A stretch of 64,000 bases of DNA from a virus (Duplodnaviria > Caudoviricetes). The translations under genes and the position numbers were made by a program. The stretch spans positions 19,529 through 83,528 of the IMG/VR virus record IMGVR_UViG_3300037484_000250; one strand, 5' to 3'. Below the pieces are notes generated by a model. It searched no databases. It saw nothing but the letters and a program-made list of their open reading frames with translations, and was not told the origin of the DNA. How positions within the stretch are numbered: the first letter of the stretch is position 1; each line of letters opens with the position of its first letter. This document shows positions 8,933 to 39,921 of the stretch, piece by piece.

Positions 8933-9131
8933 ATGGGATCGAAAAACCGGATTTTCCTGTTCGACGTGTGCGTTTTATGCACCTAAAACAATCGAGATCG
9001 GGAGATGCCGGAGAAAAGCGCCGACGATGAATGGATATCCGGCAGTTTATCCAGAACATGATTGGTGTGGGGATCACAAGGTAGATACGAATCCAAGTAA
9101 AGAAAGATTCAAAGAGCAGAATAAAGTTTGA
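8925..9131 (+). CDS. Small Cys-rich hypothetical protein
   Basis: CSTCAFY...GRCRR...DWCGDH; translationally coupled on both sides. Confidence 0.6.
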   Translation: MDRWDRKTGFSCSTCAFYAPKTIEIGRCRRKAPTMNGYPAVYPEHDWCGDHKVDTNPSKERFKEQNKV

Positions 9132-9772
9132 GAGAAATGAAAACAAAATCATTTCCTTTTTTATTTTGGGGGGAAATGGCTATGTTAACGATGCAAAGGA
9201 AGATGACAGAGGAACAACAAAAAATGGTAGAAGATAATATAAATCTGGCTAGATATATGACTAATAAATGGCTCAAGGGTGGGGTCAGGAATTTTGATTA
9301 TGATGAAATATTTTCCATGTTTTCCTTTGCACTTTGTAAAGCAGCGCGGACGTTCGATCCGAACAAAGGGGCAAAGTTTGCGACATATGCTGGGCGATGT
9401 ATGGAAAATGAAATTAAGATGGCATTTAGAAAAATGGGCAGAATTGGTAGAGAAAATTCACGAATGAATTTTGAAGATCCGATTCATATTGATACTGAGG
9501 GAAATCCTTTGACATTGATGGATATTTACTCCAATGATGATCATCTAAAATATAATGAGATATTAGACATTATGTGTGCGAAAGACGCTTTAGGGATGTT
9601 GAAGGATCGGGAGATACAGATAATTATTTCGAGGTATTTCCATATGAAATCCCAAAAGATAATTGCAGATGAGTTGAAAATATCTCAATCATATATAAGT
9701 AGATTGGAAAAAAAGATAATTAAAAAATTAAAAGATTTTAGTGAAAAGCCTGACAGACAAGAGGTATCATAA
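9128..9772 (+). CDS. Sigma-70 family sigma factor, SigE/SigK-like (copy 1)
   Basis: VEDNINLARY, FDPNKGAKFATYAGRCMENEIKM, SQKIIADELKISQSYISRLEKKII. The true start may be 9176 or 9182. Confidence 0.85.
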   Translation: MREMKTKSFPFLFWGEMAMLTMQRKMTEEQQKMVEDNINLARYMTNKWLKGGVRNFDYDEIFSMFSFALCKAARTFDPNKGAKFATYAGRCMENEIKMAFRKMGRIGRENSRMNFEDPIHIDTEGNPLTLMDIYSNDDHLKYNEILDIMCAKDALGMLKDREIQIIISRYFHMKSQKIIADELKISQSYISRLEKKIIKKLKDFSEKPDRQEVS

Positions 9773-9810
9773 TTTTATCTCTTGACTTTATTTTGTCGGG
9801 AGGTAAAGCG

Positions 9811-10323
9811 ATGAAAAAGATGACGGAGGAGCAGAGGAAACTTGTTGAAGATAATATTTGCCTTGCCGGATATATAGCTAAAAGATATGCAGCTAAAAAC
9901 ATAGAGTATTCATATGATGAGGTTTTTTGTAATGCAGCATATGGATTATGTAAAGCGGGGTTGACTTTTAATCCTGACAAGGGAGCAAAGTTCACTACGT
10001 ATGCAGGACGATGTATCGAAAATGAAATAAAAATGTTAATGCGGAAAAGACCAGTATCGTATGAAACACTTGAAATTATGGATAACAGAATACCAGATGA
10101 ATCCTGTCCAGTAGAATATGGAAGAATTTTAGATCTGATAGTCCTTAAGGAAATATTTGCGACGCTTGAGGATTATGAAAAAACAATTTTTGAGATGCTA
10201 TTCTATTATGATCTACCACAAAAAGATGTGGCGGATGTTTTAAAGATATCCCGTGCATATGTGAGTAGGTTGGCTAAGAAAACTAGGGAAAAAATTGCGA
10301 AACTCAAATTGGGGGAAATTTGA
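9811..10323 (+). CDS. Sigma-70 family sigma factor, SigE/SigK-like (copy 2)
   Basis: VEDNICLAGY, FNPDKGAKFTTYAGRCIENEIKM, PQKDVADVLKISRAYVSRL. GGGAGGT RBS. Confidence 0.85.
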   Translation: MKKMTEEQRKLVEDNICLAGYIAKRYAAKNIEYSYDEVFCNAAYGLCKAGLTFNPDKGAKFTTYAGRCIENEIKMLMRKRPVSYETLEIMDNRIPDESCPVEYGRILDLIVLKEIFATLEDYEKTIFEMLFYYDLPQKDVADVLKISRAYVSRLAKKTREKIAKLKLGEI

Positions 10324-11399
10324 AGATGCAAATTAGAAGTGATCTTAAATCTTGTATCGAGATAGATAAAAATAAAATTGGCGATGGAAAGCCAGTTTTT
10401 ATTGTCGTTGAAACTGGTGTTACTGCTTGCGGTTCGTTAGAGGTGGCTAAGGAACTTATCTATGAAGCGAAGGAAGCGGGAGCGGATGCAGTAAAGTTTC
10501 AAACTATTGATTGTGAAGAGTTTATGTCAGACAGGACAGTTAATTATAGATATAAAACTAGTGAAGGTGCTAAAGAAGAAAATATGTTCGAGATGCTTAA
10601 AAAGCATCAATTTCAACCATTTGAACTTATTGAATTATCAAAGTATGCAAAGAAAATAGGGATCACTTTTTATTTATCTGTCGATTCTATTCGAAGTGTA
10701 GAGTGGGCAGAAGATGCAAACGTTTCTGCTTATAAAATAGGATCGTGGGATTTGAGGAATTATCCCCTTCTTGAGGCAGTTGCGAGGACAGGAAAACCAA
10801 TTCAGATAGATCTAGGCCCGGCAATCATGGGTGAGGTTGTCCAGATCATTGAGTTCCTAGAGAAGCATGGGGCTAGAGAGGTCATGCTCGTTTATTGTAG
10901 TCATGCAAGTTCGATCGAGAAAATAAATTTAAACGGCATCCCTTATCTCAAAGAGATGTTAAATATCCCGATTGGCTATGCTGCAGATACTAGGGATATT
11001 ATTGCAGATTCAATGGCGATCGCTTTAGGTGCTAATCTGATTGAAAAAAGATTGACGCTGGATAGAAATACTATTGGACATCATCATATAAAATCACTTG
11101 ATCCGGTAGAGTTTAGGCAATGGATTTTATTGATTAGACAAGCAGAAAAGGCGTTAGGGGGAAAGAATCTAAAACCGTCAATCGAAGATTTATCAATGAA
11201 AAGTTTATATTTCACTAGTATAGTTGCTAATCGTGACATAGTCGAAGGTGAAGTTATAGTTAAAAATATGTTAGGTGCGAAGAGGCCGGGGACTGGTGTT
11301 TCACCTTTATATGCAGATCAGATGATTGGAAAAAGAGTGAGTAGGGATATCAAGAAAGACGAAGTACTTACTTGGTCAGATTGGTGTAGTTTTATATGA
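10320..11399 (+). CDS. neuB: NeuB-family nonulosonate synthase homolog with SAF domain (degenerate metal-binding motifs)
   Basis: GADAVKFQT, YKIGSWD, IEKRLTLD, C-terminal KRPGTGVSP SAF domain. Confidence 0.8.
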   Translation: MKMQIRSDLKSCIEIDKNKIGDGKPVFIVVETGVTACGSLEVAKELIYEAKEAGADAVKFQTIDCEEFMSDRTVNYRYKTSEGAKEENMFEMLKKHQFQPFELIELSKYAKKIGITFYLSVDSIRSVEWAEDANVSAYKIGSWDLRNYPLLEAVARTGKPIQIDLGPAIMGEVVQIIEFLEKHGAREVMLVYCSHASSIEKINLNGIPYLKEMLNIPIGYAADTRDIIADSMAIALGANLIEKRLTLDRNTIGHHHIKSLDPVEFRQWILLIRQAEKALGGKNLKPSIEDLSMKSLYFTSIVANRDIVEGEVIVKNMLGAKRPGTGVSPLYADQMIGKRVSRDIKKDEVLTWSDWCSFI

Positions 11400-12436
11400 G
11401 AGAGATACAAATTAGAGGAAGAACAATAAGTAGGTATCATAGACCATACACGATTGCAGAGGCGGGAATTAATCATAATGGCAGCTTGAAAATGGCGCTG
11501 GAAATGGTGGGAACTGCTAAGAGATCGGGAGCGGATGCAATAAAATTCCAGACGTTTAAGGCAGATGAATTTTGTAACCCAAAAGCAGAATTGTATCAGA
11601 CATTTAAACAGTGTGAACTTAAAATTGAAGATTGGAAAACAATCAAGAGGGTATGCGATCAGTTAAATCTTACATTTCTTTCGACACCGCAGAATTATAG
11701 TGACCTAGAAATACTCTTAAAATTAGGAGTAAAAGCGATTAAGGTTGGTTCGGATGATCTTACCAATCTCCCTCTTTTGAAAAGATATGCGGAAACAAGA
11801 TTACCGATCATAGTCGGTTGCGGAATGTCTTATCAAGATGAAATCGATAAAGCGGTATTGACTATAAGGGGAGATGAGACGGACTATCCAATTATATTAT
11901 TACATTGTACGTCTCTGTATCCGACGATGCCTGACGAAGTAAATATGAAAAAAATGGATAAGATAAGGAAAGCTTATCCGAATATTATTTTGGGATATTC
12001 AGATCATACGATTGGAAATGTTGCTGCAGTTTTAGGTGTGGGATTTGGGGGAAGGGTATTCGAAACCCATTTTACTATGTCGAATACCATACCGGGGCCG
12101 GATCAGAAATTCAGTAAGAATCCTACTGCTTTAAAAAGTTGGATTGATGCGATCCAGAGGGCAGATAAAATGATGGGGCATGCTGGATTAAAGCCAACTA
12201 AGAACGAAGAAAATATGAGGAAAATTGCAAGGCGAAGTGTGACTGCAGTATCAGATATAAAGAAGGGTGATAAATTCACGAATGAGAATACAGGGATGAT
12301 GAGGCCGGGGGATGGGTTACAACCTGAGAAAATAGTTTTATTCTTGGGTCAAGAAGCTATAAGGGATATTTTGAGAGGTGAGAAACTTCAAAATGAAGAT
12401 ATCGATTATGGCAAAGGCGAAAAGAATATTACTTGA
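11396..12436 (+). CDS. neuB: NeuB-family nonulosonate synthase (PseI/LegI/SpsE-like) with SAF domain
   Basis: AEAGINHNG, GADAIKFQT, IKVGSDD, LLHCTSLYP, GYSDHT, FETHFT, RPGDG. Confidence 0.9.
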   Translation: MREIQIRGRTISRYHRPYTIAEAGINHNGSLKMALEMVGTAKRSGADAIKFQTFKADEFCNPKAELYQTFKQCELKIEDWKTIKRVCDQLNLTFLSTPQNYSDLEILLKLGVKAIKVGSDDLTNLPLLKRYAETRLPIIVGCGMSYQDEIDKAVLTIRGDETDYPIILLHCTSLYPTMPDEVNMKKMDKIRKAYPNIILGYSDHTIGNVAAVLGVGFGGRVFETHFTMSNTIPGPDQKFSKNPTALKSWIDAIQRADKMMGHAGLKPTKNEENMRKIARRSVTAVSDIKKGDKFTNENTGMMRPGDGLQPEKIVLFLGQEAIRDILRGEKLQNEDIDYGKGEKNIT

Positions 12437-12839
12437 TGTTCTCGGACTAGAGGTAAATGATTACCATCCATTTGTTATGATTACTGGTAGACCGATAATT
12501 GGTAAAAATGTTTATATTGGTGCATTTTCGGAAGTTAATGCTAAGAATACTAATGTGATTATCCAAAATGATTGTGATATTGCTTCGTTCGTTGCGATAA
12601 ATGCTGCGGACTCTCATAAGTTATGCCTCGGATTGGTTGGAAAGGTTGAAAGAAAAGGAATTTGGATCGGTAATAATGTCTTCATTGGATCACATTCAGT
12701 AATAAAAGGTGGCACTACTATAGGGCATCATTCGGTAATTGCTGCGGGTTCGATGGTCGGGCCGGGGAAAATCCCGCCTTATTCTTTGGTTTGGGGGAAT
12801 CCTATGAATATTAGAGCAGGATATTATGATAAGTCATAA
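12378..12839 (+). CDS. Hexapeptide-repeat (left-handed beta-helix) acyltransferase
   Basis: IGKNVYIG, IGNNVFIGSHSVI, IGHHSVIAAGS, VWGNP. Confidence 0.85.
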   Translation: MRNFKMKISIMAKAKRILLDVLGLEVNDYHPFVMITGRPIIGKNVYIGAFSEVNAKNTNVIIQNDCDIASFVAINAADSHKLCLGLVGKVERKGIWIGNNVFIGSHSVIKGGTTIGHHSVIAAGSMVGPGKIPPYSLVWGNPMNIRAGYYDKS

Positions 12840-13782
12840 TTGTCCAACATTAGGATCTGATGAACAAAGAGCAGCGAACCGAATCATTGGATCTGGATGG
12901 ATTGGGATGGGAAGGGAAGTCGAAAGATTCGAGAATGAATTATGTAATTATCTAGGACTTCCAGAAGGTCATGCGGTAGCAGTGAGCAGTGGAACGGCAG
13001 CTCTATTTATGGCGATTAAATATTCTCGTAAATTAAATATTTCATATCCGATATATACGTGTTCGGCAGTTAGAAATGCTGTAATAGCAGCAGGGTCTAT
13101 GCCGGAAGCGATGGATGTTGGAATAGATTCAGATATCGTTGTTCATATGTTTGGAATACCGGAAAGGATAAACCATAGACCTATTATTGAGGATGCGGCC
13201 CAAGCATTAGGGGCAAAAGTAAATAATCAATGTGTTGGTACATTTTGTGATTATGGGGTTTTCTCGTTCTCTGCTACGAAGATTATAACAAGTGGTGGGC
13301 AAGGTGGGGCAATAGTTTCTAGGGATAAGGCGAGGATTGATGAAGTTCGAGATTATAGGGAATTTGATATGCGAAACGATCTGTTACCAAGGTTTAATTT
13401 TCAAATGTCAGATTTACAGGCAGCGATTGGGAGAGTTCAACTATCTAAAATAAATAAGTTCATTCAGCGCCGGGAAGAGATATTCAATGAATATGTTCTT
13501 GCTGGTTTTCCAATGGTCAAGAGCACAGATAAATCTATAATAGATGTTCGGTATCGGGCGATCATGAAAATTGATAGAGCGAAAAAAATAATTGATACCT
13601 TGTACAATTATGGGATCAAGGCAATTGTACCGATCGAGGAGTTCGAGTTAATAGGCGATAGGGATCTTTATCCGAATGCCTTAGAGATGACTAGGACAAC
13701 AGTATCGTTACCAATTTATCCAAGTATGACTGATAAAGAAGTCGATTTAATTATTTTGGTGGTGAAAAAATGCCTGTATTAA
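12826..13782 (+). CDS. Second DegT/DnrJ-family aminotransferase
   Basis: VSSGTAAL, IIEDAAQALG, FSFSATKIITSGGQGG, FNFQMSDLQAAIG. Confidence 0.88.
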   Translation: MISHNCPTLGSDEQRAANRIIGSGWIGMGREVERFENELCNYLGLPEGHAVAVSSGTAALFMAIKYSRKLNISYPIYTCSAVRNAVIAAGSMPEAMDVGIDSDIVVHMFGIPERINHRPIIEDAAQALGAKVNNQCVGTFCDYGVFSFSATKIITSGGQGGAIVSRDKARIDEVRDYREFDMRNDLLPRFNFQMSDLQAAIGRVQLSKINKFIQRREEIFNEYVLAGFPMVKSTDKSIIDVRYRAIMKIDRAKKIIDTLYNYGIKAIVPIEEFELIGDRDLYPNALEMTRTTVSLPIYPSMTDKEVDLIILVVKKCLY

Positions 13783-14516
13783 GCCCGAGTAAAAAGATGA
13801 TTCTTACAGCACACCAGAGCAGTTTCCTACCTTGGTTGGGCCTGTTTCATAAAATAGCGATCGCAGATAAATTCGTGCATTTTGATCAAGTGCAGTATTG
13901 CAGTAAGGATTGGATGAATCGAAATAAGATCAAGACTGACCGAGGATATATATGGTTGAGTGTTCCGGTGTTGAATAAAGATCATCGAAGTAAAAAAATA
14001 TCTGATATTGAAATCAATAACCAAACTAGATGGAAAGAAAAACATTGGAAGTCAATTTATCTGGCATATAAAAAGGCCAGATATTTTAATGATTATACAG
14101 CATTCTTTGAAGATGTTTATAAAAGAGATTGGAAATATCTCATTGAACTAAATAATTTTATGTTTGATTGGTATTTAAAAACATTGGGAATAAAGACAGA
14201 AATTGATTATGCAGCCAACTATAAATTTGAAGGATCGAAGAATGATCTTGTCTTAGACATGTGTAAAAAGTTGGAAGCTGACATTTATATATTTGGTGGA
14301 CAGGGTCAAAATTATGCTAACAGATCGGCATTTAGGGAGTGTAATATAGTTCCTTATTTCCAAGAATATATTCACCCAAAGTATACCCAACTTCATGGTG
14401 AGTTTATCCCTTATATGGGAATCATCGATTTATTATTCAATGAAGGGCCGAGATCGTTAGACATAATCATGAGCAGTAATGTCAAGAAAATAACTTTGGA
14501 TGGAAGTGTAAGATGA
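13770..14516 (+). CDS. wbqC: WbqC-family protein
   Basis: HQSSFLPWLGLFHKI, DQVQY...WMNRNKI, WLSVPV, YIFGGQG, Y.QLHGEFIPYMGIIDLLFNEG. Confidence 0.88.
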   Translation: MPVLSPSKKMILTAHQSSFLPWLGLFHKIAIADKFVHFDQVQYCSKDWMNRNKIKTDRGYIWLSVPVLNKDHRSKKISDIEINNQTRWKEKHWKSIYLAYKKARYFNDYTAFFEDVYKRDWKYLIELNNFMFDWYLKTLGIKTEIDYAANYKFEGSKNDLVLDMCKKLEADIYIFGGQGQNYANRSAFRECNIVPYFQEYIHPKYTQLHGEFIPYMGIIDLLFNEGPRSLDIIMSSNVKKITLDGSVR

Positions 14517-15196
14517 TAAATTTATTTAAGGAATGCCCGATACCGGAGAAGGAGTTATTATCGAATCTAAATTTATTTATCAGAAGACAACCCTTGACGA
14601 GAGTTATTTTCCTTTATGAGTTATATAAAAAAATACTTGGAATTCATGGAAATATTTTAGAGTTTGGGGTTAGATGGGGTCAAGATATGGCAATCTTCGA
14701 ATGCTTTAGGGGAATGCTAGAACCATTTAACTACACTAGGAAAATTATTGGATTTGATACGTTCAAGGGATTTCCGAATGTGTCGGATCACGATCAAGAT
14801 GCTAAAGTCGGAGATATGGGAGTCACAGAAGGGTATCGTTATTATTTGGGGAAAGTATTGGCGGAACAAGAGAAAGAGAGTCCGATAACACAGATAACAA
14901 AGCATGAGTTAGTAAAAGGTGATGTTGTTGAGACTATGCCGGAATATCTTTTTAGACATCCAGAAACGATAATTTCCTTGGCGTATTTTGATTTTGATAT
15001 ATATGAACCGACGAAAGTTTGCTTAGATTTATGCAAGGATCGATTTAGTAAAGGCTCGATAATCGCATTTGATGAAGCGAACAATATGAACTGGCCGGGC
15101 GAGACGATCGCAATTCAGGAGATACTTGGAATTAGAAATATAAAACTAGAGAGATTTCCATGGTGTCCGACAATGAGTTATATGGTGGTGGAGTAA
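14513..15196 (+). CDS. TylF/MycF/NovP-related sugar O-methyltransferase
   Basis: GNILEFGVRWG, IIGFDTFKGF, LVKGDV, YFDFDIYEPT, GSIIAFDE. Confidence 0.85.
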   Translation: MINLFKECPIPEKELLSNLNLFIRRQPLTRVIFLYELYKKILGIHGNILEFGVRWGQDMAIFECFRGMLEPFNYTRKIIGFDTFKGFPNVSDHDQDAKVGDMGVTEGYRYYLGKVLAEQEKESPITQITKHELVKGDVVETMPEYLFRHPETIISLAYFDFDIYEPTKVCLDLCKDRFSKGSIIAFDEANNMNWPGETIAIQEILGIRNIKLERFPWCPTMSYMVVE

Positions 15197-15858
15197 TGTT
15201 CTCTAAAGAATGGGAAGAAAGGTATAGTCAGGGTATGAGTCATTCACTTTGGCCTTGGACGGATCTAATTAAATATGTAAATAGATATGGTAATTTAGTA
15301 GCTGGTGATAAGGTCTTAGAATTAGGGCCGGGTATTGGTGCGAATATCCCGTATTTCCTATCTATTGGTGTGGATTATTATGCTATCGAGGGAAGTCCTA
15401 CGGCAGTAAAAATGATCAGAGATAAATATCCAGAATTAGCGGGTAAGATTATCAATGGAGATTTTACAAAAAATATACCCTTTGATATAAAATTTAATCT
15501 AGTTATCGATAGAAGTTCATTGACACATAATGACACTGCGAGCATCATGGATTCGCTCACATTTATTTCTGATAAATTAATGCCGGAAGGGAAATTCATT
15601 GGAATTGATTGGTTTTCTTGGGAACATGGACAAAGAAGATTGGGAAGTCAAGGTCGAGATCCTTATACATTTACATTTGAACAAGGTAAATTTATCAAAT
15701 GTGGAAAGGTTCATTTTAGTACGGAGGCACATATATCTACAGTTTTCGGGGAGTCGGGATTTGAGATAGAAGTACTCGAACATAAAATAAATCAAAATAT
15801 AAAACCAAATGTGGGAAATACAGAGGCAGTATGGAATTTAGTGGCAATGTTAATATGA
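15196..15858 (+). CDS. Class I SAM-dependent methyltransferase
   Basis: VLELGPGIGAN motif I, YAIEGS, DLVIDRSSL. ATG overlaps the upstream stop. Confidence 0.85.
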   Translation: MFSKEWEERYSQGMSHSLWPWTDLIKYVNRYGNLVAGDKVLELGPGIGANIPYFLSIGVDYYAIEGSPTAVKMIRDKYPELAGKIINGDFTKNIPFDIKFNLVIDRSSLTHNDTASIMDSLTFISDKLMPEGKFIGIDWFSWEHGQRRLGSQGRDPYTFTFEQGKFIKCGKVHFSTEAHISTVFGESGFEIEVLEHKINQNIKPNVGNTEAVWNLVAMLI

Positions 15859-16572
15859 GTGATGGGAGAGAAACTTATGGGAGCGTTGGCAATTATTCCA
15901 GCAAGGGGTGGATCGAAACGTCTGATAAATAAAAATATCCAGACTATTAATGGAAAAACATTACTAGAGTATGCGATCCAGACATCGATTGATAGTGGGG
16001 TCTTCTCGGAGATTGTGGTCACTAGTGATGATCGAAGTTATCTGGAAATTGCTTCAAAATATAAAGTAGTTTTACATTTAAGACCACCTAGTTTAAGTGG
16101 TGATTTCTGTAAATTGAGGACATTGGTGAGATATCTACTAGAAATATATTATGCAGAAGGAAATGCATTCGAAAATATGGCGCTTGTTATTCCGACTTCA
16201 CCATTAAGAAATGCTAATGATTTAAGGACGGCATCAGCATTGTTGGATAAGCACCAAGACATAAATGGTGTAATGAGTGTGAGTAATTTGAGATATCCGC
16301 CAAGGCATTCACTTCGAATAAATAAAACAACGGGGTTAGTTGAACCTATGTTCCCAGAGGATATTGATACCCAGCATATGGAATTAGAGCAGGGATATAT
16401 CCATGATGGGTCTGTTATATTTGTGAGAACTAAAAAGTTCATGCAATATGAAGATTTTTATATGCCGAGTATGATGCCATATTATGTGAGTGAAGAAAGA
16501 GCGATGGATATTAATACTCAGAATGATCTAAGGATAGCAAGATTTCTGATGGGAGAGTATGGGAGGAAATAG
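15859..16572 (+). CDS. neuA: Acylneuraminate cytidylyltransferase (NeuA/PseF family)
   Basis: IIPARGGSKRLINKNI, VTSDD, LRPP, PTSPLR, DGSV, AMDINT. Confidence 0.9.
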   Translation: MMGEKLMGALAIIPARGGSKRLINKNIQTINGKTLLEYAIQTSIDSGVFSEIVVTSDDRSYLEIASKYKVVLHLRPPSLSGDFCKLRTLVRYLLEIYYAEGNAFENMALVIPTSPLRNANDLRTASALLDKHQDINGVMSVSNLRYPPRHSLRINKTTGLVEPMFPEDIDTQHMELEQGYIHDGSVIFVRTKKFMQYEDFYMPSMMPYYVSEERAMDINTQNDLRIARFLMGEYGRK

Positions 16573-16573
16573 C

Positions 16574-17278
16574 ATGGCGGATATTCTTATAATTTCAGCT
16601 CATCCGGACGATGAAGTGCTAGGTTGTGGCGGAGTAATAGCGAGATCGGTAAGAGTTGATAATCAAGATGTATACATCGCATATTTGAGTTATGGAGCAA
16701 TGGCAAGAAGACCGGGCGAAGATATGGATGATCTTGAAAAAGAAAAGATCAAAGATAGATCTAGGGCTGCGATATCGGTGTTAATGGGTGTATCGAAATC
16801 AGATATTAAAAAACATTTAAGGTTTGTAGATTTTCCAGACAATCAATTTGATACAGTACCATTCATAAATATTGTTCGTTTGATAGAAGAACTTATCGAT
16901 GAGTTACAACCGGATTGCATATTCACGCATTCCCAGAAAGATTTGAATATTGATCATGTTATAACACACAGGGCAGTATTGACGGCGACAAGACCGATGA
17001 AGGATAAGCATAGAGTATCAGCTATATATACATTTCCTATTCCGTCCAGTACGGAATGGGCATTTTCATCTTTTGGAAGTTTCTCGCCGAATGTATTCTT
17101 TGATATTGCGACATTTACTGAACTGAAAATTAGAGCATTAAAATGTTATGATACAGAGGTGAGAGCATTTCCTCATCCGAGATCGGTTGAACTTATTCAA
17201 GTGATGGCATGTTTTATGGGATCTAGTGTGGGAATGGGGTCGGCAGAGGGGTTTGAAGTTGTTAGGTGTTTGATATGA
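16574..17278 (+). CDS. PIG-L/LmbE-family deacetylase
   Basis: SAHPDDEVLGCGG, FTHS..DLNIDH, HPRS. Confidence 0.88.
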   Translation: MADILIISAHPDDEVLGCGGVIARSVRVDNQDVYIAYLSYGAMARRPGEDMDDLEKEKIKDRSRAAISVLMGVSKSDIKKHLRFVDFPDNQFDTVPFINIVRLIEELIDELQPDCIFTHSQKDLNIDHVITHRAVLTATRPMKDKHRVSAIYTFPIPSSTEWAFSSFGSFSPNVFFDIATFTELKIRALKCYDTEVRAFPHPRSVELIQVMACFMGSSVGMGSAEGFEVVRCLI

Positions 17279-21845: not shown

Positions 21846-23303
21846 ATGCAAGTTCAGGAGTATTTGGATGTAGTTTTGGATACTCTCAAAAAATTCATAC
21901 CAAAAGAAACGTTTGATAAGATTCACGAAATAGCAGTTCCAGAAGAAATAATTAAGGGTGTAACACCGTTCAAGGATTTACCTCTTGCAGATAGGGAAAT
22001 GGAATGGGATGGATCGGAAGCTGAAAAAAATATTAGAGTGTGGGCAGGGGGAAGCGACAAGGAAGATATAAATTGGGGTAAATTTAGTCAAGGATTCTTA
22101 TGGGTTGATGATGAAAATAAGGAAGCATTTGGTGGATATAAATTCCCGATTGCAAATGTGATTGATGGAAAATTAATGGCAATACCGAGAGGAATATTTG
22201 CTGCAGCAGGAGTTCTCAGTGGAGCTAGGTTGACAGGTGGAGCATCACAAATAAATGTTCCAGAAGAAGATATACAGGGAATGAAGGATCATGTTGATAG
22301 ATATTATGCGAAGATGAGAGAAATGTGGGATGATGAAAAATTAATCAGTCCATTCAAAAAGGAAATTACATTATCGCAAAAAAGGGACGAATTTGTTCCA
22401 ATGGTCAAAAGTTCGGGGAAGGAAAATTCTCAAATAGCTTTCGTCGGAGCTTCACCGGGGAAAATAGAATATTTAAGGGGAGAAGCATTTGTCGGGCCGT
22501 GTGGAGAAACATTTAATGAATTATATATTAAACCATTAGGATTGGGCCGTGAGGATATATTTTTAACCAATGCTGTACCAATGTTATTAATTGATAAATC
22601 GGGAAATGTCAGAGAACCGACAGATATTGAGGTTAGTGATTGGGGTGAGTGGTTAGAAAAGGAATTGGAAATGGCTAATCCTAAAGTAATCGTAGCTCTA
22701 GGACATAAAGCTAAAAAAGCTCTTGGTGAAAATGTTGATTTTGTTTTGCCCCATCCTATGGCGATTCGAAGGTTTAATGATTCTGGTGAGGTTGGAAGAA
22801 AACTGAAACAGATAAAAGTTAAACTTGAGGAAATCAATAAGGGATTGCCTACCGTAGGGGATGTCCATATAGATTCAACTAATTGGGAGAGGCCAAAGAT
22901 TAAACCAAATACCCAAAATGATGAGGTAATCTATGCCGATATAATCAAAGCTGATGTCGAAAAGCAACTTGTATATGGCATAGTTTTAGAACCGGGAAGT
23001 GTCGATGCACAAAATGACACGATAGGTGCAGAAGAGATAGAGAAAGCTGCACACAATTATTTACAGAATTCTAGAGTTATAGGAGAGTCACATAAGGCCA
23101 AGGCCAAGGCCAATGTCGTTGAAAGTTATCTTGCTCCGTTAGATTTTACGTTTGGTGGTCAAAAGGTAACTAAAGGCACATGGGTAATGGTCGTTAAAAT
23201 CAATGACGAAAAAATGTGGGAGGATGTGAAAAGCAAAAAATTTAAAGGTTTCAGCATAGGGGGATTTTCAAGAAGAGTTCCAGTCACAGAACCAGTAATG
23301 TAA
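21846..23303 (+). CDS. Multidomain head protein: N-terminal domain, family-4-UDG-like domain and XkdF-like prohead protease
   Basis: IAFVGASPG...AFVGPCG...FLTNAV...PKVIVALG...PHP (UDG-like). QLVYGIVLEP...DAQND...AAH...TWV...KGFSIGG (XkdF-like). Confidence 0.75.
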   Translation: MQVQEYLDVVLDTLKKFIPKETFDKIHEIAVPEEIIKGVTPFKDLPLADREMEWDGSEAEKNIRVWAGGSDKEDINWGKFSQGFLWVDDENKEAFGGYKFPIANVIDGKLMAIPRGIFAAAGVLSGARLTGGASQINVPEEDIQGMKDHVDRYYAKMREMWDDEKLISPFKKEITLSQKRDEFVPMVKSSGKENSQIAFVGASPGKIEYLRGEAFVGPCGETFNELYIKPLGLGREDIFLTNAVPMLLIDKSGNVREPTDIEVSDWGEWLEKELEMANPKVIVALGHKAKKALGENVDFVLPHPMAIRRFNDSGEVGRKLKQIKVKLEEINKGLPTVGDVHIDSTNWERPKIKPNTQNDEVIYADIIKADVEKQLVYGIVLEPGSVDAQNDTIGAEEIEKAAHNYLQNSRVIGESHKAKAKANVVESYLAPLDFTFGGQKVTKGTWVMVVKINDEKMWEDVKSKKFKGFSIGGFSRRVPVTEPVM

Positions 23304-25809: not shown

Positions 25810-26793
25810 GTGAGCGATTTGCCGAATCCAACGCTTAGTGACGTTCACGTAGACCGTGCATTAACCAACATTTCAATTGCGTATATCCAAGACACAGAGC
25901 GAAATTTTATCGCAAATAAAGTATTCCCGATCGTGCCTGTTACCAATAAGAGTGATAGGTATTTTATTTTTTCACAGGCTGATTTCTTCCGAAACGAAGC
26001 TAAAGTCAGAGCGCCGGGGGCTGAAACTGCGGGCGGAGGATATAGATTAAGTACAGACAATTATAATTGTGATGTACTTGGTTATCATGCAGATCTTGAC
26101 GATCAGACTCGGGCTAATGCTGATCAACCTCTTCAACTTGAAAGATCTCACACAGTTTATGTAACTCAGCAACTCCTTCTTAAACGTGAGGTTGAGTGGG
26201 TCAGTCATTTCTTCACAACTGGTTTATGGACTGGATCGACAACGGGTACAGATTTAGTCGGTGCTGTGGACTTTACCCAATGGGATAATATTGTTAGTAC
26301 TCCTATTGAGGATATCACTAATCAAGCTGATAGTATTTCTAGGAAAACTGGATATAGACCTAATTGTTTAGTTCTAGGGCCAGAAGTTTATACAACATTG
26401 AAAAATCATCCAGACATCCTTGACCGCGTTAAGTATACCCAAAAAGGAGTTATCACGGAAGATATCTTGGCAGTTCTGTTTGATGTTGAGCGTGTGCTTG
26501 TACCAAGAGCTGTACAGAATACGGCTGCAGAGACAGCTACTGCAACTTATGCATTCATCTATGGGAAGAATGCTTTCCTTGGATATTCAGCACCAGCGCC
26601 CGGTCTTTATCAACCTTCGGCTGGATATCTGTTCACTTGGCAGGGTCTATTCGGAGCAGGAGCAGAGGGTGTCAGGATCAAGAATTTCCGTGTAGAAGTA
26701 AATGCAGCTAATCGTATTGAGGGTGAATCTGCATGGTCGATGAAAGTTGTTGGTGCAGATCTTGGTTGTTTCTTCTCGGCAGCTATAGTTTAG
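25810..26793 (+). CDS. Major capsid protein
   Basis: 327 aa; DRALTNISIAY...FPIVPV..KSD.Y...RAPG, typical of phage capsid E-like proteins; operon position. Confidence 0.85.
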   Translation: MSDLPNPTLSDVHVDRALTNISIAYIQDTERNFIANKVFPIVPVTNKSDRYFIFSQADFFRNEAKVRAPGAETAGGGYRLSTDNYNCDVLGYHADLDDQTRANADQPLQLERSHTVYVTQQLLLKREVEWVSHFFTTGLWTGSTTGTDLVGAVDFTQWDNIVSTPIEDITNQADSISRKTGYRPNCLVLGPEVYTTLKNHPDILDRVKYTQKGVITEDILAVLFDVERVLVPRAVQNTAAETATATYAFIYGKNAFLGYSAPAPGLYQPSAGYLFTWQGLFGAGAEGVRIKNFRVEVNAANRIEGESAWSMKVVGADLGCFFSAAIV

Positions 26794-26888: not shown

Positions 26889-27275
26889 ATGGGGTTTGAA
26901 AAAGAACAACGTCCAGCTATGAAAACATTCGATGAAAGATACAGAATTCAGGCGATAACCAGCACAGCGACAACTATTCTTGGATATGGTGTTACTACTT
27001 TGTCATCTACTAAACCGGGGACATTAACATTTAATATTGAACCACCACTCTTTGCGGGGGCAGATAAGACCATCATTGCATTAGTGCAGTCGGGTTCGTC
27101 GTCGATCTATAAAGTTATCCCGAATACTACAACAATTTTTTATGGTTCAACTTCATCTAGCACAGGAAGAGTCATAGCATTCAGTGCGCCGGGAGAGGTT
27201 GTTCAATTAATTGCTGTATCAGCGACTAAGTACCAAGTCGTTTCGAATTTATCAAGCACATTTGGTACGACTTAA
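26889..27275 (+). CDS. Ser/Thr-rich putative virion (head decoration) protein
   Basis: 128 aa, S/T-rich, paralogous to the C-terminus of 27320-28621. Confidence 0.55.
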   Translation: MGFEKEQRPAMKTFDERYRIQAITSTATTILGYGVTTLSSTKPGTLTFNIEPPLFAGADKTIIALVQSGSSSIYKVIPNTTTIFYGSTSSSTGRVIAFSAPGEVVQLIAVSATKYQVVSNLSSTFGTT

Positions 27276-27319
27276 AGAAATGAAATTATTAATATTGAGG
27301 AAAGGAGGAGAAATATAAA

Positions 27320-28621
27320 GTGGGCAATGAGTATATTAAAAGGCCAATCTATTCAAATATGCTTAGGAATCTTCCATCAACTGACAGCTATTTATTTTCA
27401 GATGGAGATATTAATTTGCAACTGCGTTCCACGGCTGGGGTTACAAAAGTAAGCATATTAAATGCTTCAACAGTCGAAGTTGCTAGTATTAATTCTCTAG
27501 GAGTTGCAAGTTTTACTGGTCTTGCTGCCACAAGTGATTTTGATGTAACTGGAAGTTTTACTGTTAACACGGATGATTTTGTAGTTTCTGCAACATCTGA
27601 TATATCGATGAAACCTACTGGTGGAGATGTAAAGATCACATTAGGGGATGCAGCAGGAGCAAGGAAATTCTTCATCAAAGATTCAGCGAATAGTACTGTG
27701 GCAACGATTGATTCAGATGGTACGGCTACAGTGATTAAGTTAACGGCAAGTAGCGACATTTCGGGTCAGTCGGTGAGTGCAACAAGTAATCTTTCCAGCG
27801 TTAATTTAACAATTAACACGGATGATTTTGTAGTATCTGGAACATCAGATATATCAATGCTCCCCACTGGTGGAAATGTGAAGATCACATTAGGGGATGC
27901 TCTAGGTGCTAAAAAATTCTTCATCAAAGATTCAGCTAATAGTACAGTGGCAACTATCGATTCAGACGGTACAGCTACAGTCGTTAAATTGACAGCAAGC
28001 AGTGACATTTCCGGTCAATCGGTCAGCGCATCGAGTAATCTTTCAGGTGTTCACCTTGCAGCAACATCCGATGCAGCGATCACTGGTGCATTAACAGCAC
28101 GGTCTGTTTCTTCATCGAGTAATCTTTCAGGTGCTCACCTTGCAGCAACATCCGATGCAGCGATCACTGGTGCATTAACAGCGAGGAGTGTTTCTTCATC
28201 GAGCAATCTTTCAGGTGCTCATGTGACAGCAAGTTCTAATTTCGTAGCTACTGGTTTTGTGCAAGGTGGAGGTTTTGTTGATTCTTATCTTGCTAAAACT
28301 ACGGCAACGGTAGGAACGGCTATTCCTAATAAAGGACTCACGTCGTTGGCACAAGTAAACACGACCCAAGTAACATGGACGTTGGAAGATCCTACGGCAG
28401 CAGGATTTCTTAAAACAATTTTCGTGCTTAGTCAAATTGGTACTACGGCAAGAACTTTCATATTACCAGCATCGACAAAGACAGTTTTCTCTTCATCTCA
28501 AGGATCTACAGGTAGAAAAATTACATTCGATGTTGCAAGAGAAGCGGTTTCCATGGTGAGTGCATCGACAACTACATGGCTAGTTTATAATAGCCAATTC
28601 GGTGCATTTGGATCATCATAA
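27320..28621 (+). CDS. Ser/Thr/Ala-rich putative capsid fibre/decoration protein with internal repeats
   Basis: Two 83-aa repeats (249-bp offset, 27566/27815) and ~2.3 copies of a 28-aa repeat (84 bp; 28031, 28115, 28199). Confidence 0.6.
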   Translation: MGNEYIKRPIYSNMLRNLPSTDSYLFSDGDINLQLRSTAGVTKVSILNASTVEVASINSLGVASFTGLAATSDFDVTGSFTVNTDDFVVSATSDISMKPTGGDVKITLGDAAGARKFFIKDSANSTVATIDSDGTATVIKLTASSDISGQSVSATSNLSSVNLTINTDDFVVSGTSDISMLPTGGNVKITLGDALGAKKFFIKDSANSTVATIDSDGTATVVKLTASSDISGQSVSASSNLSGVHLAATSDAAITGALTARSVSSSSNLSGAHLAATSDAAITGALTARSVSSSSNLSGAHVTASSNFVATGFVQGGGFVDSYLAKTTATVGTAIPNKGLTSLAQVNTTQVTWTLEDPTAAGFLKTIFVLSQIGTTARTFILPASTKTVFSSSQGSTGRKITFDVAREAVSMVSASTTTWLVYNSQFGAFGSS

Positions 28622-28706
28622 ATATTAGATCTATGATATAGGATCAGTCTAAAAGATATAAGGGAGGGATAAGGGCAATCCTTCGGGGGGAGATGCCCAT
28701 TTATTT

Positions 28707-29612
28707 ATGAGTGAAAACCAAGTTAAAGAACAAGTTGAAACGGTAGAAATTTCCAATGTAGCGGTTCAGCAACCATGTGATGTATCAAAATATGTGGCTG
28801 TTAAAGAAGAGATATTGGAATTTAAAAGGTATTCTGATAGTGTTATGATTTTAGGATTTGCACCGGATAGTTTAAAGTATGCCCCACTTGATGCGAATAA
28901 TATTGACATATGGGCTTTAAATGAGCTTTACATGGATAAGCCGAAAATTGCTATACGAGCGACAGCGTGGTTTCAACTTCATGGATATGAACCTCCAAAG
29001 ATTAGAGATGCACAACAAGTTAAGAATCTATCATTTTTAAAATGTCCAATAATTATGTGGCGGAAACATCCTAATATTCCAAATTCTATTGAATATCCGT
29101 TAAGGGAAATTCTCGAAGAATTTGATATTTATGGGGATGATATGGCCCTCGATCAACCGGACGTTAGGACTAGGGTATATTTTACGAATAGTATTTCTTG
29201 GATGATAGCTCTTGCAATAAAGATGGGTTATAAAGATATCCAGATCTATGGTGTAAACATGGCGCAAGACCAAGAATTTCAACATCAAAGACCAAGTTGT
29301 GAATTCTTTTTAGGCTGGGCAAGAGGAAAGGGAATCAAGATATATAAACCACCAGTTTCGGATTTGCTCTTGACTCCTTATTTATATGGCTATGATGATG
29401 CTACTGCATACATGCAAAAGCTAGAGGCCCGGCGGATTGAACTCATCGAAAGAGTTGAAGGGACGAGAAGACAAAGGATCTCATTCCAAGAACAATCGAA
29501 TCAGCAATTACAAGCAGAACAGAATTTACTTGGTGCGCTGCATGATGTCGAATATATTATGAGACTTGGAAATCCAGTTAAGTTAGATGAATTTTCTAAG
29601 CCAAAGGGGTGA
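28707..29612 (+). CDS. Putative sialyltransferase-like (CstII/GT42- or Maf-like) glycosyltransferase
   Basis: VMILGFAPDSL...DIWALNELY...WFQLH...TNSISWMIALAIKMGYKDIQIYGVNM parallels the CstII layout VIIAGNGPSL...DVFRCNQFY...TSGVYMCAVAIALGYKEIYLSGIDF. Confidence 0.55.
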   Translation: MSENQVKEQVETVEISNVAVQQPCDVSKYVAVKEEILEFKRYSDSVMILGFAPDSLKYAPLDANNIDIWALNELYMDKPKIAIRATAWFQLHGYEPPKIRDAQQVKNLSFLKCPIIMWRKHPNIPNSIEYPLREILEEFDIYGDDMALDQPDVRTRVYFTNSISWMIALAIKMGYKDIQIYGVNMAQDQEFQHQRPSCEFFLGWARGKGIKIYKPPVSDLLLTPYLYGYDDATAYMQKLEARRIELIERVEGTRRQRISFQEQSNQQLQAEQNLLGALHDVEYIMRLGNPVKLDEFSKPKG

Positions 29613-29872
29613 TCACCTTGAGTGATTTATATTATCTCGTATTAAGAAATGGATATAGATTCAATGATCTTATTTTGAAAGCGGGAGAAATTTATACGTC
29701 GGCTGATTTCGAAGAAGTTCATGAGCAAAGAAAAGTCGCCTTAGTTCTTGGCAGAATCATTTATCGAGGATCGTCAGAGGAGGTTAAAAATAAGAGGGAA
29801 AAACTGTTTGGGATAATAGAAATTCCAGAAGAAGAATCAAAGGGTGAATCAAAGAAGAAGACGGCTAAATAG
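29609..29872 (+). CDS. Hypothetical head-module protein
   Basis: 87 aa ORF coupled to the upstream stop (GTGA). Confidence 0.5.
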   Translation: MITLSDLYYLVLRNGYRFNDLILKAGEIYTSADFEEVHEQRKVALVLGRIIYRGSSEEVKNKREKLFGIIEIPEEESKGESKKKTAK

Positions 29873-29881
29873 CCGTCTTCC

Positions 29882-30337
29882 TTGCTTAGGGAGGTGTTTC
29901 ACATCACATGGAGTTACCAAGGCTATCCGGCTGATAATCTCAAGGACGAGGTCAGATTTCTTGTAAGGGATACAAATTCAAGTGACCAGTTATTAAGTGA
30001 TGAGGAAATCTATTATTTGCTTACTATTTTCCCAAACCCTTTGGCATCGGCTGCAATGGCGTGTGAAACTCTTGCTAGTAAATTTGCAAGGGATGCATCC
30101 GAAAAGTCGGTCGGTGATCTAAAGATAAATCTGGTTGAAAAAGGAAAAGCATTTAGTGATCAAGCATCAAGGTTATGGATTCTTTCAAAATTATATCGAG
30201 GAAGACCTCAAGTCTATGCGGGCGGAATTTCCGTAGCAGATAAACAGAGTCAGGAACAAAATAGTGACCGCGTTACACCGGATTTCTACCGTCATATGAA
30301 TGACTTCCCGGGTACTCAAACAGGTTCATCTAGCTAA
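29882..30337 (+). CDS. Head-tail adaptor/connector protein
   Basis: DEVRFLVRDT...LLSDEEIYYLL...AAMACE...SVGDLKI; operon position. Confidence 0.7.
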   Translation: MLREVFHITWSYQGYPADNLKDEVRFLVRDTNSSDQLLSDEEIYYLLTIFPNPLASAAMACETLASKFARDASEKSVGDLKINLVEKGKAFSDQASRLWILSKLYRGRPQVYAGGISVADKQSQEQNSDRVTPDFYRHMNDFPGTQTGSSS

Positions 30338-38070: not shown

Positions 38071-39921
38071 ATGCAAGTAAAAAAAGATTCGAATACGATC
38101 GGGATAGATTGTTCTTGTTTTAATAGTACGATTAGCTGGGGAACGGTTGCGACAGATCCGAGGAATATAAAATTTGCTTATTTAAGATGCAGTATGGGAA
38201 CAAGTAATTCGGATACGAAATTTGCTAAAAATGCTGCGGGAGCAAGAGCAAATAATATTCTGGTCGGGGCATATCATTTTCTTAGACCAATTAGGCCAGC
38301 TTATGCTTCGACTAGAGCAACGGATGAGGCAAATAATTTTGTAACTAAGATGCAAGTTGGATTAGGTGGAGGGGAATTTGGGGATATATATCCTGTTGTG
38401 GATGTTGAATTCCCAAGCACACCAGCAATTGCAAATGATCCTGTGGAGACAAGGGATCTATTAAATTATGTTCAAACATTTAGGAATAGAGTTGAACAAG
38501 TAACTGGAAGAACAATCATGGCTTATGTCGGTGTGGATTATATGCAGAGTCCTTGGAACAATTTTAATTACCCGACTTCGGCTGGGCCTATATCTGACAT
38601 GCCGTTGTGGGCAGCATATTGGTTAAGATTGCATGTGGGATCTAGTGCTCCGCCGGATGCGGGAGGGTGGACGCAGTGGAGGGTATGGCAGTATTCGGAT
38701 ACGGGTGTGGTTACTGGAATAACGACAGCGACGGATCTTAATTTTGGGCCGGATAATCTAAGATTTTTGCAGGATAATACTGCAGAATCAAAAGGACTTG
38801 CACCAGTTAAACAATTATATGTTTTGAATTCAAATAAAAGATTGCAAGTAGTATTGAGTAATGCTAGTGCTGCATGTCCTTTTTATAATCCGATCCATAC
38901 AGAACAGATCAACCAAGAGAATAAATTAACATTTAGTGTTCCGGCTAACCATGCGGACGCTGCAGAAGTCATAGAGGGAAATCTTGTATTTTTCAGGGAT
39001 TTTGATGATCCGACTCAGATTCAATTATTCGAAATTCTAAGAATTGAAGAAAGCCATCTAGGTAATTTATATAAAGATGTGGTATGCCAGCATAAGGTCT
39101 TTGAGTTGGTCGATGATTGGATCGATAGTTTGACGTTAACAGATGTGACATGTGGATCAGCTTTGAATTCCATTCTTACAGGAACTAGATGGATTGTAGG
39201 CGCAGTCGAACCCGTGGGTACTCATACATTTAGATTTTTCAGAGTGACGGTTATGGAGGCATTAAGAAGAATCGTAACAACGTGTGATGGCGAGTGGAAG
39301 TTTAGAGTTGAATTTGTAGGGTCAGATATTACAGCGCAATATATCGATATCGTAAATCAGCGTGGAGAAGATCGTGGAAGACGTTTCGAGTATAGCCGGG
39401 ATATAAAGAGTATTAGAAGAATGATTGATAATTCTCGGTTAGTTACTAAGGCATTTGGATATGGCGGATCAACGTTGATTACATTTTCTACAGTCTTGTG
39501 GACGACTGCAGGGGGAGATCCGGCGGATAAACCAGTGAGCCAATTATATGTCGAAGATAAACTTGCTACGAGTCAATATGGTAGGTATCGGGGATCTACT
39601 AATATATTACCAGTCGAGAATTCATTTACCTCAACGACCTCTAATAAGATAACATTGTTAGAACAGACGTGGGATTATATTCAAGATAATAATTTTCCAA
39701 GGACGACATATGAACTAGAGGTCGCAGATTTGGAAATTATTGCTGGGAGTGCACACCAGAAGGTTAGACTTGGCGATACTGTGAAGGTAATTGATACTTT
39801 ATTTCAACCAGTTTTAAGATCCTCGGCCCGCATATATGAAGTCGATCGTTATCTGAGCGAACCTGAAAAAAATCATGTGGTTATTAGTAGCCTTCCATTG
39901 ATCTTAATAGCTGATTCGTGA
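38071..39921 (+). CDS. GH25 muramidase fused N-terminally to a Tal/tail-spike structural domain
   Basis: GIDCS...FAYLRCSMG...VGAYHF...VVDVE...LWAAYW...WQYSDTG (GH25), then IHTEQINQENKLTFSVP...RGEDRGRRFEYSRDIKSIRR...LGDTVKVID (Tal). Confidence 0.8.
   Translation: MQVKKDSNTIGIDCSCFNSTISWGTVATDPRNIKFAYLRCSMGTSNSDTKFAKNAAGARANNILVGAYHFLRPIRPAYASTRATDEANNFVTKMQVGLGGGEFGDIYPVVDVEFPSTPAIANDPVETRDLLNYVQTFRNRVEQVTGRTIMAYVGVDYMQSPWNNFNYPTSAGPISDMPLWAAYWLRLHVGSSAPPDAGGWTQWRVWQYSDTGVVTGITTATDLNFGPDNLRFLQDNTAESKGLAPVKQLYVLNSNKRLQVVLSNASAACPFYNPIHTEQINQENKLTFSVPANHADAAEVIEGNLVFFRDFDDPTQIQLFEILRIEESHLGNLYKDVVCQHKVFELVDDWIDSLTLTDVTCGSALNSILTGTRWIVGAVEPVGTHTFRFFRVTVMEALRRIVTTCDGEWKFRVEFVGSDITAQYIDIVNQRGEDRGRRFEYSRDIKSIRRMIDNSRLVTKAFGYGGSTLITFSTVLWTTAGGDPADKPVSQLYVEDKLATSQYGRYRGSTNILPVENSFTSTTSNKITLLEQTWDYIQDNNFPRTTYELEVADLEIIAGSAHQKVRLGDTVKVIDTLFQPVLRSSARIYEVDRYLSEPEKNHVVISSLPLILIADS

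Follow-up and report, generated by a model that had tools for sequence, protein, structure and literature searches.

A GT42-fold putative nonulosonate transferase next to knob-ended fibre genes in the head module of a tailed phage: a candidate cassette for virion glycosylation

We examined a 64-kb window, i.e. the whole stretch of DNA that was analysed, covering positions 19529–83528 of the complete 83,528-bp tailed-phage record IMGVR_UViG_3300037484_000250, which has direct terminal repeats, with a focus on gene 28707 (genes are named here by their first position in the window). All genes of interest are on the + strand of the window, and 28707 lies in the head module, where the order is scaffold-like 24298, cement-like 25221 (a weak match), the capsid gene 25810, 26889, 27320, 28707, the small open reading frame (ORF) 29609, 29882 and the neck proteins. 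The 28707 protein has the fold of GT42 sialyltransferases, its gene directly follows a gene for a knob-ended protein here and in many related phages, and it occurs together with genes for a nonulosonic acid pathway, present in this phage as a sugar cluster upstream. An earlier note, made from the sequence alone, had described a sialyltransferase-like gene between capsid decoration genes and the head-tail adaptor, and suggested that the phage may coat its particle with a pseudaminic/legionaminic-type sugar. The location in the head module is as that note described it, and its coordinates for the ORFs 26889, 27320 and 28707 are the ones that we list (Table 1). A simple scan of the + strand between the capsid gene and 28707 revealed no convincing terminator.

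Sequence, fold and family of the 28707 protein

The CstII/GT42-like motif layout that had been read in 28707 is real; it is weak by sequence (16.7 bits against Pfam CST-I, PF06002, for which the cut-off is 25) and convincing with profiles and fold. CST-I has no second match anywhere in the genome; weak PF06002 matches were also obtained in 8 of 44 relatives (best E 4.9e-4). No PHROGs or NCBIfam family was found for 28707 or 26889, and the single 28707 sequence found no match among the PDB sequences. CstII was reached by the family profile only, which is based, as is the structure model, on a 44-sequence alignment of the 28707 family (A1); hmmsearch of this profile against PDB gave CstII at E 2.5e-4 over CstII residues 3–163. 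The profile was also compared by hhalign with 10 genuine PF06002 proteins and with 20 Maf proteins, both sets taken from Campylobacterales genomes. The GT42 comparison reached 93.7% (E 2e-7) over 132 columns, which correspond to 28707 residues 43–184, whereas the Maf comparison reached 3.6%, with no similarity past an 18-column motif, and the GT42-versus-Maf control 2%. Thus, where the earlier note had left the choice between a CstII/GT42-like and a Maf-like layout, the first part holds and the second, by sequence, does not; kinship with Maf by sequence was dropped, the 3.6% being no better than the control.

In A1, residues G50, H92, P131, N161, S164, G182, M185, E190, Q194 and Y227 are invariant, and 196-PSCE-199 is nearly invariant. 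The CMP (cytidine monophosphate)-binding elements of CstII, which we take to be the N-terminal G-N-G-P-S loop, Asn31, the Thr131/Ser132 loop and the G-I-D strand, align to G50-x-x-P53-x-S55, the Asn of 'LNELY', the invariant N161/S164 and G182-V-D/N184 of 28707, respectively. Invariant H92 is found near the position of CstII Asn51 in the profile alignment.

The AlphaFold2 model of 28707 (predicted local distance difference test, pLDDT, 84.7) shows strands and helices alternating over residues 45–213, followed by a 54-residue helix; the catalytic domain covers approximately residues 40–225 and the long C-terminal helix residues 234–287. All 16 Foldseek matches in PDB with E<=0.001 are GT42 sialyltransferases (E 2.4e-6 to 1e-4, template modelling score 0.34–0.51). 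In VIA, an all-against-all comparison independent of Foldseek, Cst-I (2p56) came first with Z 11.7 over 166 amino acids (aa) at a root-mean-square deviation (rmsd) of 3.2, followed by Maf (5mu5; Z 9.4, 159 aa, rmsd 3.6), the MptE pyrophosphokinase (Z 9.4), SteA (Z 8.6) and animal GT29 sialyltransferases (Z 6–7.4). The GT-A-like sialyltransferase fold, on which the earlier suggestion depended, is therefore present in the model, and in the comparison of 28707 with CstII and Maf proposed at that time Foldseek, VIA and hhalign all rank GT42 first.

With the acceptor side and the catalytic His outside the part that can be aligned, we consider 28707 to be a divergent GT42 relative over the nucleotide-binding part. 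It resembles CstII and Cst-I of Campylobacter jejuni (PF06002; PDB 1ro7 and 2p56) in its single-domain modified GT-A/Rossmann fold, in its similar size and in the homology over the nucleotide-binding two-thirds, and its donor would likewise be a CMP-nonulosonate. It differs from them in that the acceptor/lid part and the catalytic His of GT42 do not align, in the phage family's own invariant set (H92, N161, S164, E190, Q194 and the near-invariant PSCE at 196–199) and long C-terminal helix, and in being viral and likely to act on a protein, not on a lipooligosaccharide glycan.

The Maf and FlmG systems are known to O-glycosylate proteins with nonulosonic acids. Maf (PF01973 central domain; PDB 5mu5) has the same core fold as 28707, and the mode of action that we propose below is like that of Maf, i.e. 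pseudaminic/legionaminic pathways and a cytoplasmic O-linkage to Ser/Thr of a surface-exposed structural protein before its assembly. Maf is, however, a protein of 600–700 aa with extra N- and C-terminal domains (the Maf ORFs recovered here were mostly ~630–660 aa, and 470–565 aa in four cut loci), while 28707 has 301 aa with one catalytic domain and a helix. Before export, the Ser/Thr residues of flagellin receive O-linked pseudaminic, legionaminic or sialic acids from Maf (10.1101/2020.06.03.131540; see also PMC4065374 and PMC3426422), the activity of which needs a conserved Ser in the central domain as well as acidic residues (10.1101/2020.06.03.131540). The invariant S164, which lies in the loop aligned to the CstII Thr131/Ser132 loop, and the invariant or near-invariant acids E190, E199 and D219 of 28707 may correspond to these residues. 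We have filed 28707 as GT42-like in fold and homology, Maf-like in its proposed working mode and a member of neither family.

The 28707 family is almost purely viral; with clustering at 50% identity it has 3,153 cluster representatives at E<=0.001 (1,675 at E<=1e-10), and more than 535 IMG/VR loci carry it. A cellular origin was dropped, as only 16 loci were detected in 185,579 species genomes, all of them on short contigs of metagenome-assembled genomes. None of the 120 relatives listed carries a glycosyltransferase-type Pfam domain. The look-alikes in the ESM Atlas are viral hypothetical proteins, with PF01973 on 16% of the members of one cluster, which we regard as a lead only. In the GenBank phages there was one distant match, from Microcystis phage Mvi-Yong1342-1, the sole cultured-phage relative of the transferase family (locus L137, 6917–7720; PP496355.1, 34781–35584), with 31% identity over 63% of the query. 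This homologue is annotated as 'type 11 methyltransferase', which is probably wrong, and the phage may offer a handle for experiments.

Sugar pathway and its linkage to the transferase and knob genes

The sugar cluster occupies 13 kb (4323–17278) between the small and large terminase genes, and its predicted products (Table 1) together indicate a pseudaminic-acid-type pathway. The earlier note had recognised no glycosyltransferase within the cluster, and none was found in the complete record either. The GT2, GT4, GT28, GT52 and MptE-like (PF01973, at E<=1) families had no match anywhere in the 83,528 bp, so that 28707 is the only transferase candidate found for the pathway; weak PF01973 matches were obtained in 3 of the 44 relatives.

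The position of the cluster between the terminase genes, and the fact that phage glycosyltransferases are best known for DNA glycosylation (PMC12619734), would agree with a sugar that is placed on the phage DNA as a base hypermodification blocking host nucleases. This idea was dropped, since the genome lacks a thymidylate-synthase-type hydroxymethylase to make the acceptor base; moreover, 28707 is in the head module and not in the replication module. We know of no DNA transferase with the fold or the donor class of 28707, and we find DNA modification hardly credible.

To describe the gene context, we used 80 IMG/VR loci with a 28707 homologue (numbered with the prefix L), over all ORFs of which a hidden Markov model (HMM) of the knob domain was iterated. 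In 45 of the 80 loci the transferase gene is immediately preceded, on the same strand, by a gene for a knob-ended protein, mostly with gaps of <160 bp, and this adjacency persists at transferase identities down to 34–40%. The upstream sequence was too short in 7 of the loci where no knob gene was found upstream. The order capsid, knob, transferase and neck-side gene occurs in many phages whose capsid proteins are only 45–57% identical to that of the window. In some loci sugar genes are also within this region: PseB and PseC are between the knob gene and the transferase in L050, L057 and L058, PseB alone is there in L059, and in L020 the transferase, NeuB, PIG-L, PseB and PseC are between portal and MuF.

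A second clade (L060, L063, L069, L077 and L078) has the transferase after a ~260-aa Ser/Thr-rich protein (Ser/Thr fraction 0.26–0.28), which follows a capsid-like ORF of 420–630 aa ending in 'SPFVVL'. The order is the same, with a partner that is unrelated to the knob family by HMM.

NeuB was present in 20 of the 41 transferase-carrying records and CTP_transf_3, representing the CMP-sugar synthetase, in the same 20; the records without NeuB are fragments, 15–67% complete, while all seven records with at least 90% completeness carry both. The sister phages, which encode a homologous capsid protein 47–57% identical to that of the window and have neither transferase nor knob gene, had NeuB, the pathway marker searched for in this set, in none of 25 records, four of them at least 90% complete. 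As a control, NeuB was found in 3 of 50,697 GenBank phage records. The Fisher p for transferase versus NeuB was 0.003 for the complete records and 1.2e-5 for all records, with both the counts and the p values uncorrected for shared ancestry. Among 78 new IMG/VR loci with a capsid homologue (47–57% identity, and 90% in one close relative), 3 had the transferase and the same 3 had the knob gene; the remaining loci had neither, and there the homologue of the neck-side gene 29882 often comes directly after the capsid gene. Given this co-occurrence and joint absence, knob gene, transferase and sugar pathway act like a single accessory cassette. The strict co-occurrence also backs the link to a CMP-nonulosonate donor, which the earlier note had drawn from the known chemistry of GT42 and Maf.

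These associations also bear on whether 28707 is a glycosyltransferase at all. A fold of the MptE/thiamine-pyrophosphokinase type may serve another reaction, or the protein could be a structural or assembly factor docking by its C-terminal helix; the Z score of MptE (HPPK) equals that of Maf, SteA follows closely behind, the catalytic His of GT42 cannot be placed, and the few relatives with a PF01973 match point the same way. The best match is nevertheless GT42 in sequence as well as in structure, the strict tie to NeuB and a CMP-sugar synthetase makes no sense for a pyrophosphokinase, and the pathway would then have no transferase at all. We consider a function other than glycosyl transfer very improbable, and judge with good confidence that 28707 is a nonulosonate transferase of some kind.

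An HNH endonuclease gene is just upstream of pseB, on the opposite strand in an otherwise all-plus operon. Midway through the sugar cluster, the PseC-like gene and the first NeuB are separated by two genes for sigma-70-family factors; these factors may drive the transcription of late genes or of the sugar genes. Two related phages (G004:C1:39470-40177 and G005:C1:30709-31350, the records of L007 and L010) each have two NeuB copies, one of which contains a single in-frame TGA; this could reflect a decaying paralogue, a sequencing error or recoding.

Knob proteins as candidate acceptors and the role of the sugar

The C-terminal 115 aa of 27320 and the 26889 protein are 30% identical (E 1e-12). 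In 26889, an all-beta knob at residues ~24–120 is followed by a Ser/Thr-rich C-terminal tail; in 27320, the knob is at residues ~328–425 plus the tail (domain HMM E 3e-25), preceded by a shaft of tandem repeats (83 aa x1.9 and 28 aa x2.3). No Pfam family was found for this domain of ~95 aa, the AlphaFold2 model of which is all-beta (pLDDT 83.8). Its fold matches are Solidus gp83 tailspike (Z 10.6), residues 79–180 of CBA120 TSP4 (Z 10.3), a KP1 baseplate protein (Z 9.9) and, in the Pa223 capsid spike, the distal knob (Z 7.5, 98 aa); all matches above noise are phage fibre or spike modules, including tailspike XD domains, and the next ones fall to Z 5.8 and 4.0. Owing to this fold and to the position between the capsid and neck genes, we propose that 26889 and 27320 are capsid spikes or fibres, one short and one long, with the C-terminal knob exposed, and their place on the capsid is accordingly a prediction from fold and gene position. 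The Pa223 protein, gp52 of a Pseudomonas phage (PDB 9ny6), is a trimeric spike on the capsid 3-fold axes with an N-terminal anchor (10.1101/2025.06.11.659172). It has, as predicted for the proteins here, a distal beta knob on a capsid fibre; this knob aligns with our knob model, and is unlike them in that it has no sequence similarity, no associated transferase and other attachment and shaft parts.

The earlier note had stressed the Ser/Thr-rich neighbours of 28707 and the Ser/Thr-rich tail proteins. Among the 78 ORFs (mean Ser/Thr fraction 0.117, standard deviation 0.056), the top six are 27320 (0.293), 26889 (0.281), 40533 (0.267), 31555 (0.264), 40015 (0.242) and 32282 (0.241), which bears out the description for all the proteins it had named except 25221, with only 0.20. 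In knob proteins adjoining a transferase gene the Ser/Thr content is 26–38%; the tail after the knob has 6–24 residues, and Ser/Thr make up 41% of the last 12 residues compared with 15% in other ORFs. Such richness says little alone, as it is common in beta-rich virion proteins. A predicted complex of the 28707 and 26889 proteins scored 0.00, which was counted neither for nor against binding.

With several tail proteins as Ser/Thr-rich as the knob proteins, the acceptors might also be other virion proteins, for instance the capsid protein, 31555 (the long major tail protein) or 40015 and 40533 of the distal tail; the linkage to the knob would then have some other reason. Mycobacteriophages reportedly glycosylate capsid and tail-tube subunits alike (cited in PMC12619734), and in about a third of the loci no knob gene is upstream of the transferase. 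No tail gene, however, shows a conserved linkage, homologues of 40015 and 40533 being present in none of the 80 loci, so that the Ser/Thr-rich tail proteins do not stand out as specific partners of the enzyme. In addition, the similarity of capsid proteins to that of the window is equal in phages with the transferase (45–57%) and in those without it (47–57%). We regard these other acceptors as quite improbable. The link to a virion protein that the earlier note had drawn is stronger than it could know, through the knob domain common to 26889 and 27320 and the knob gene directly before the enzyme gene in over half of the loci.

Our proposal, to which we give about an even chance, is that the three-part cassette serves to attach a nonulosonic acid, in O-linkage, to the capsid fibres of the phage itself. 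The phage pathway would make a CMP-activated pseudaminic-type sugar late in infection, and 28707, as a cytoplasmic, late-expressed enzyme of GT42 fold, would take this CMP-sugar. The acceptors would be the knob-ended head-fibre proteins 26889 and 27320, with sites likely at Ser/Thr, including those of the short tail after the knob, and the glycosylated fibres would then be mounted on the capsid, which would bring a sialic-acid-like sugar to the outermost points of the particle. The benefit of such a coat might be shielding, mimicry or adhesion. As far as computation reaches, through predicted folds and gene comparisons, the earlier interpretation as virion glycosylation is thus supported.

Several points weigh against this proposal, which is built wholly on fold, homology and gene association. 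The CST-I match of 28707 (E 0.0054) covers residues 162–190 only and fails the curated GT42/PF06002 threshold of 25 bits. The GT42 part with the catalytic base, which we take to be His188 of CstII, is not aligned, as local alignments end before it and a forced global alignment puts a gap there, beside QRPSCE, a conserved motif of the phage family. The same fold is found in pyrophosphokinases, i.e. in MptE and, at Z ~6, in thiamine pyrophosphokinase. The association counts are uncorrected for shared ancestry. In ~28 of the 80 loci another upstream gene, often Ser/Thr-rich, takes the place of the knob gene, and adjacency alone fits an acceptor as well as another partner, e.g. a lectin knob that binds the sugar. 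The closest folds of the knob are mostly tail-spike domains. Finally, the homologue of Microcystis phage Mvi-Yong1342-1 is just before terS, outside any head module, in a record without a NeuB match.

Some of these points would suit a nonulosonate transferase that acts on a glycoconjugate at the host surface, e.g. a wall polymer, an S-layer protein, a lipid-linked oligosaccharide or flagellin. With the receptors capped late in infection, neither progeny nor competing phages would adsorb to infected cells and debris, and the knobs would be lectin-like fibres reading the same glycan. The characterised GT42 enzymes sialylate lipooligosaccharide glycans and not proteins, knob and TNF-like domains of phage fibres often bind carbohydrate, the authors of the Pa223 study propose a host-recognition role for the capsid spike, and the Microcystis phage homologue is not in a head module. 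In many diverged phages, on the other hand, the transferase is within the head module, in L020, L050 and L057–L059 together with sugar genes, and this location implies late co-expression with structural proteins and hence little time for remodelling of the cell surface. Transferase and knob genes are also gained and lost together, and the ORFs that were scanned showed neither a membrane anchor nor a flippase-type gene. We therefore consider action on the host surface unlikely, and return to the capsid fibres as the preferred target.

Glycosylation of virions has a precedent in mycobacteriophages, at the C-termini of capsid and tail-tube subunits (Freeman et al. 2023, as cited in PMC12619734). 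The earlier note, which knew of no such chemistry in characterised phages, thus missed this precedent, although it does not involve the nonulosonic sugar class. Phages Che8, Corndog and Myrna are reported to resemble the case proposed here in that transferases encoded by the phage modify its structural proteins at their C-terminal ends and alter particle recognition. The present genome differs from them in uniting, within one cassette, a complete nonulosonic acid pathway with an enzyme of sialyltransferase fold and a dedicated gene for a knob fibre. Those mycobacteriophages reportedly use ordinary nucleotide-sugar transferases and host sugar precursors. The literature that we searched contained no report of nonulosonic acids on phage particles, nor of the 28707 enzyme family.

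If our proposal is true, these would be the first phage particles known to us that carry nonulosonic (sialic-like) acids made and attached wholly through phage genes. A large viral family (>3,000 clusters at 50% identity) that is nameless in Pfam, PHROG and NCBIfam would gain a function, and the very few protein O-sialyltransferases known would be joined by a compact one of 300 aa, of use in glyco-engineering. It would also explain why costly sugar pathways of 10–13 kb are within phage late operons, and would bear on the sticking of particles to hosts, mucus and debris and on immune recognition. The cassette being widespread, we tentatively suggest, a little short of an even chance, that tailed phages show sialic-acid-like sugars on the tips of capsid fibres, as a new class of virion modification with a new branch of protein-directed sialyltransferases. 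Under that wider view, many phage lineages and environments would probably be concerned, and adsorption, host mimicry or particle recognition would probably be affected.

Gene map and neighbouring genes

Upstream of the head module, a terS-like gene, a ParB-like gene, the sugar cluster, the large terminase, a Mu-type portal and MuF follow each other in this order, and between MuF and the scaffold-like 24298 there are a fusion of a uracil-DNA-glycosylase (UDG) domain with an XkdF protease and an endonuclease-like gene. Downstream of 29882 are the neck proteins 30699 and 31117, two major tail proteins, a chaperone, the tape measure, an SPP1-type Dit and Tal with a GH25 lysozyme (Table 1).

Table 1. 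Coordinates in the window of the cassette genes and of neighbouring features
Feature	Position	Strand	Basis or remark
HNH endonuclease gene	3453-4238	-	
PseB-type UDP-GlcNAc (uridine diphosphate N-acetylglucosamine) 4,6-dehydratase	4323-5285	+	TIGR03589 405.6 bits (cut-off 407.75); Pfam Polysacc_synt_2 7e-93
PseC-type aminotransferase	7856-8932	+	TIGR03588 3.6e-107, below cut-off; DegT 2.6e-109
Two sigma-70-family factor genes (214 and 176 aa)	9128-10323	+	
Two tandem NeuB/PseI-type nonulosonate synthases	10320-11399, 11396-12436	+	PF03102 1.2e-56 and 1.5e-63; NCBIfam NeuB and PseI matches below cut-off
Tailoring genes: hexapeptide acetyltransferase, second DegT-like protein, WbqC, TylF-like methyltransferase, class I methyltransferase	12378-15858	+	
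PseF-like CMP-sugar synthetase	15859-16572	+	TIGR03584 1.6e-42 (best match, below cut-off); PF02348
PIG-L deacetylase	16559-17278	+	PF02585
XkdF-type prohead protease fused to UDG-superfamily domain	21846-23303	+	protease residues 366-477, E 2.6e-32; UDG-like residues 191-311, E 4e-19
Endonuclease-like gene, 298 aa	23364-24260	+	repeated Cys-rich zinc-ribbon units; C-terminal endonuclease I / Holliday-junction-resolvase-like domain
Major capsid protein	25810-26793	+	phrog_1005 E 4.7e-91; upstream border of accessory cassette
Short knob protein, 128 aa; candidate acceptor and capsid spike	26889-27275	+	knob fold, position, Ser/Thr fraction 0.281
Long fibre-like paralogue of 26889, 433 aa	27320-28621	+	C-terminal knob, tandem-repeat shaft, Ser/Thr fraction 0.293
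GT42-fold putative CMP-nonulosonate transferase, 301 aa	28707-29612	+	fold, profile comparison
Small ORF, 87 aa, overlapping the transferase stop by 4 nt	29609-29872	+	homologues only in close relatives (L001, L002, L004 and L006)
Hairpin	29855-29882		perfect 12-bp stem (6 GC pairs), 4-nt loop
First conserved neck-side gene	29882-30337	+	phrog_1732 (no function given); downstream border of cassette
Adjacent major-tail-protein paralogues, 235 aa and 137 aa	31555-32695	+	phrog_9522 and phrog_10528
Tail-tip protein Tal (Prophage_tail family) with N-terminal GH25 muramidase	38071-39921	+	

The hairpin, just past the stop of 29609 where 29882 starts, may act as an attenuator or RNA processing site closing the fibre-transferase unit. 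The UDG/XkdF fusion is kept in the close relatives L001–L005 and L013, and a UDG-like domain on a head-maturation protease is unusual. No homologue of the product of the endonuclease-like gene 23364 was found in any of the 80 related loci, so that this gene, which separates the protease gene from the scaffold gene, looks like a mobile nuclease inserted into the head module. The 235-aa major tail protein has a Ser/Thr-rich C-terminal extension of ~100 aa. The Tal bearing GH25 and the SPP1-type Dit together suggest a host of the Gram-positive type.

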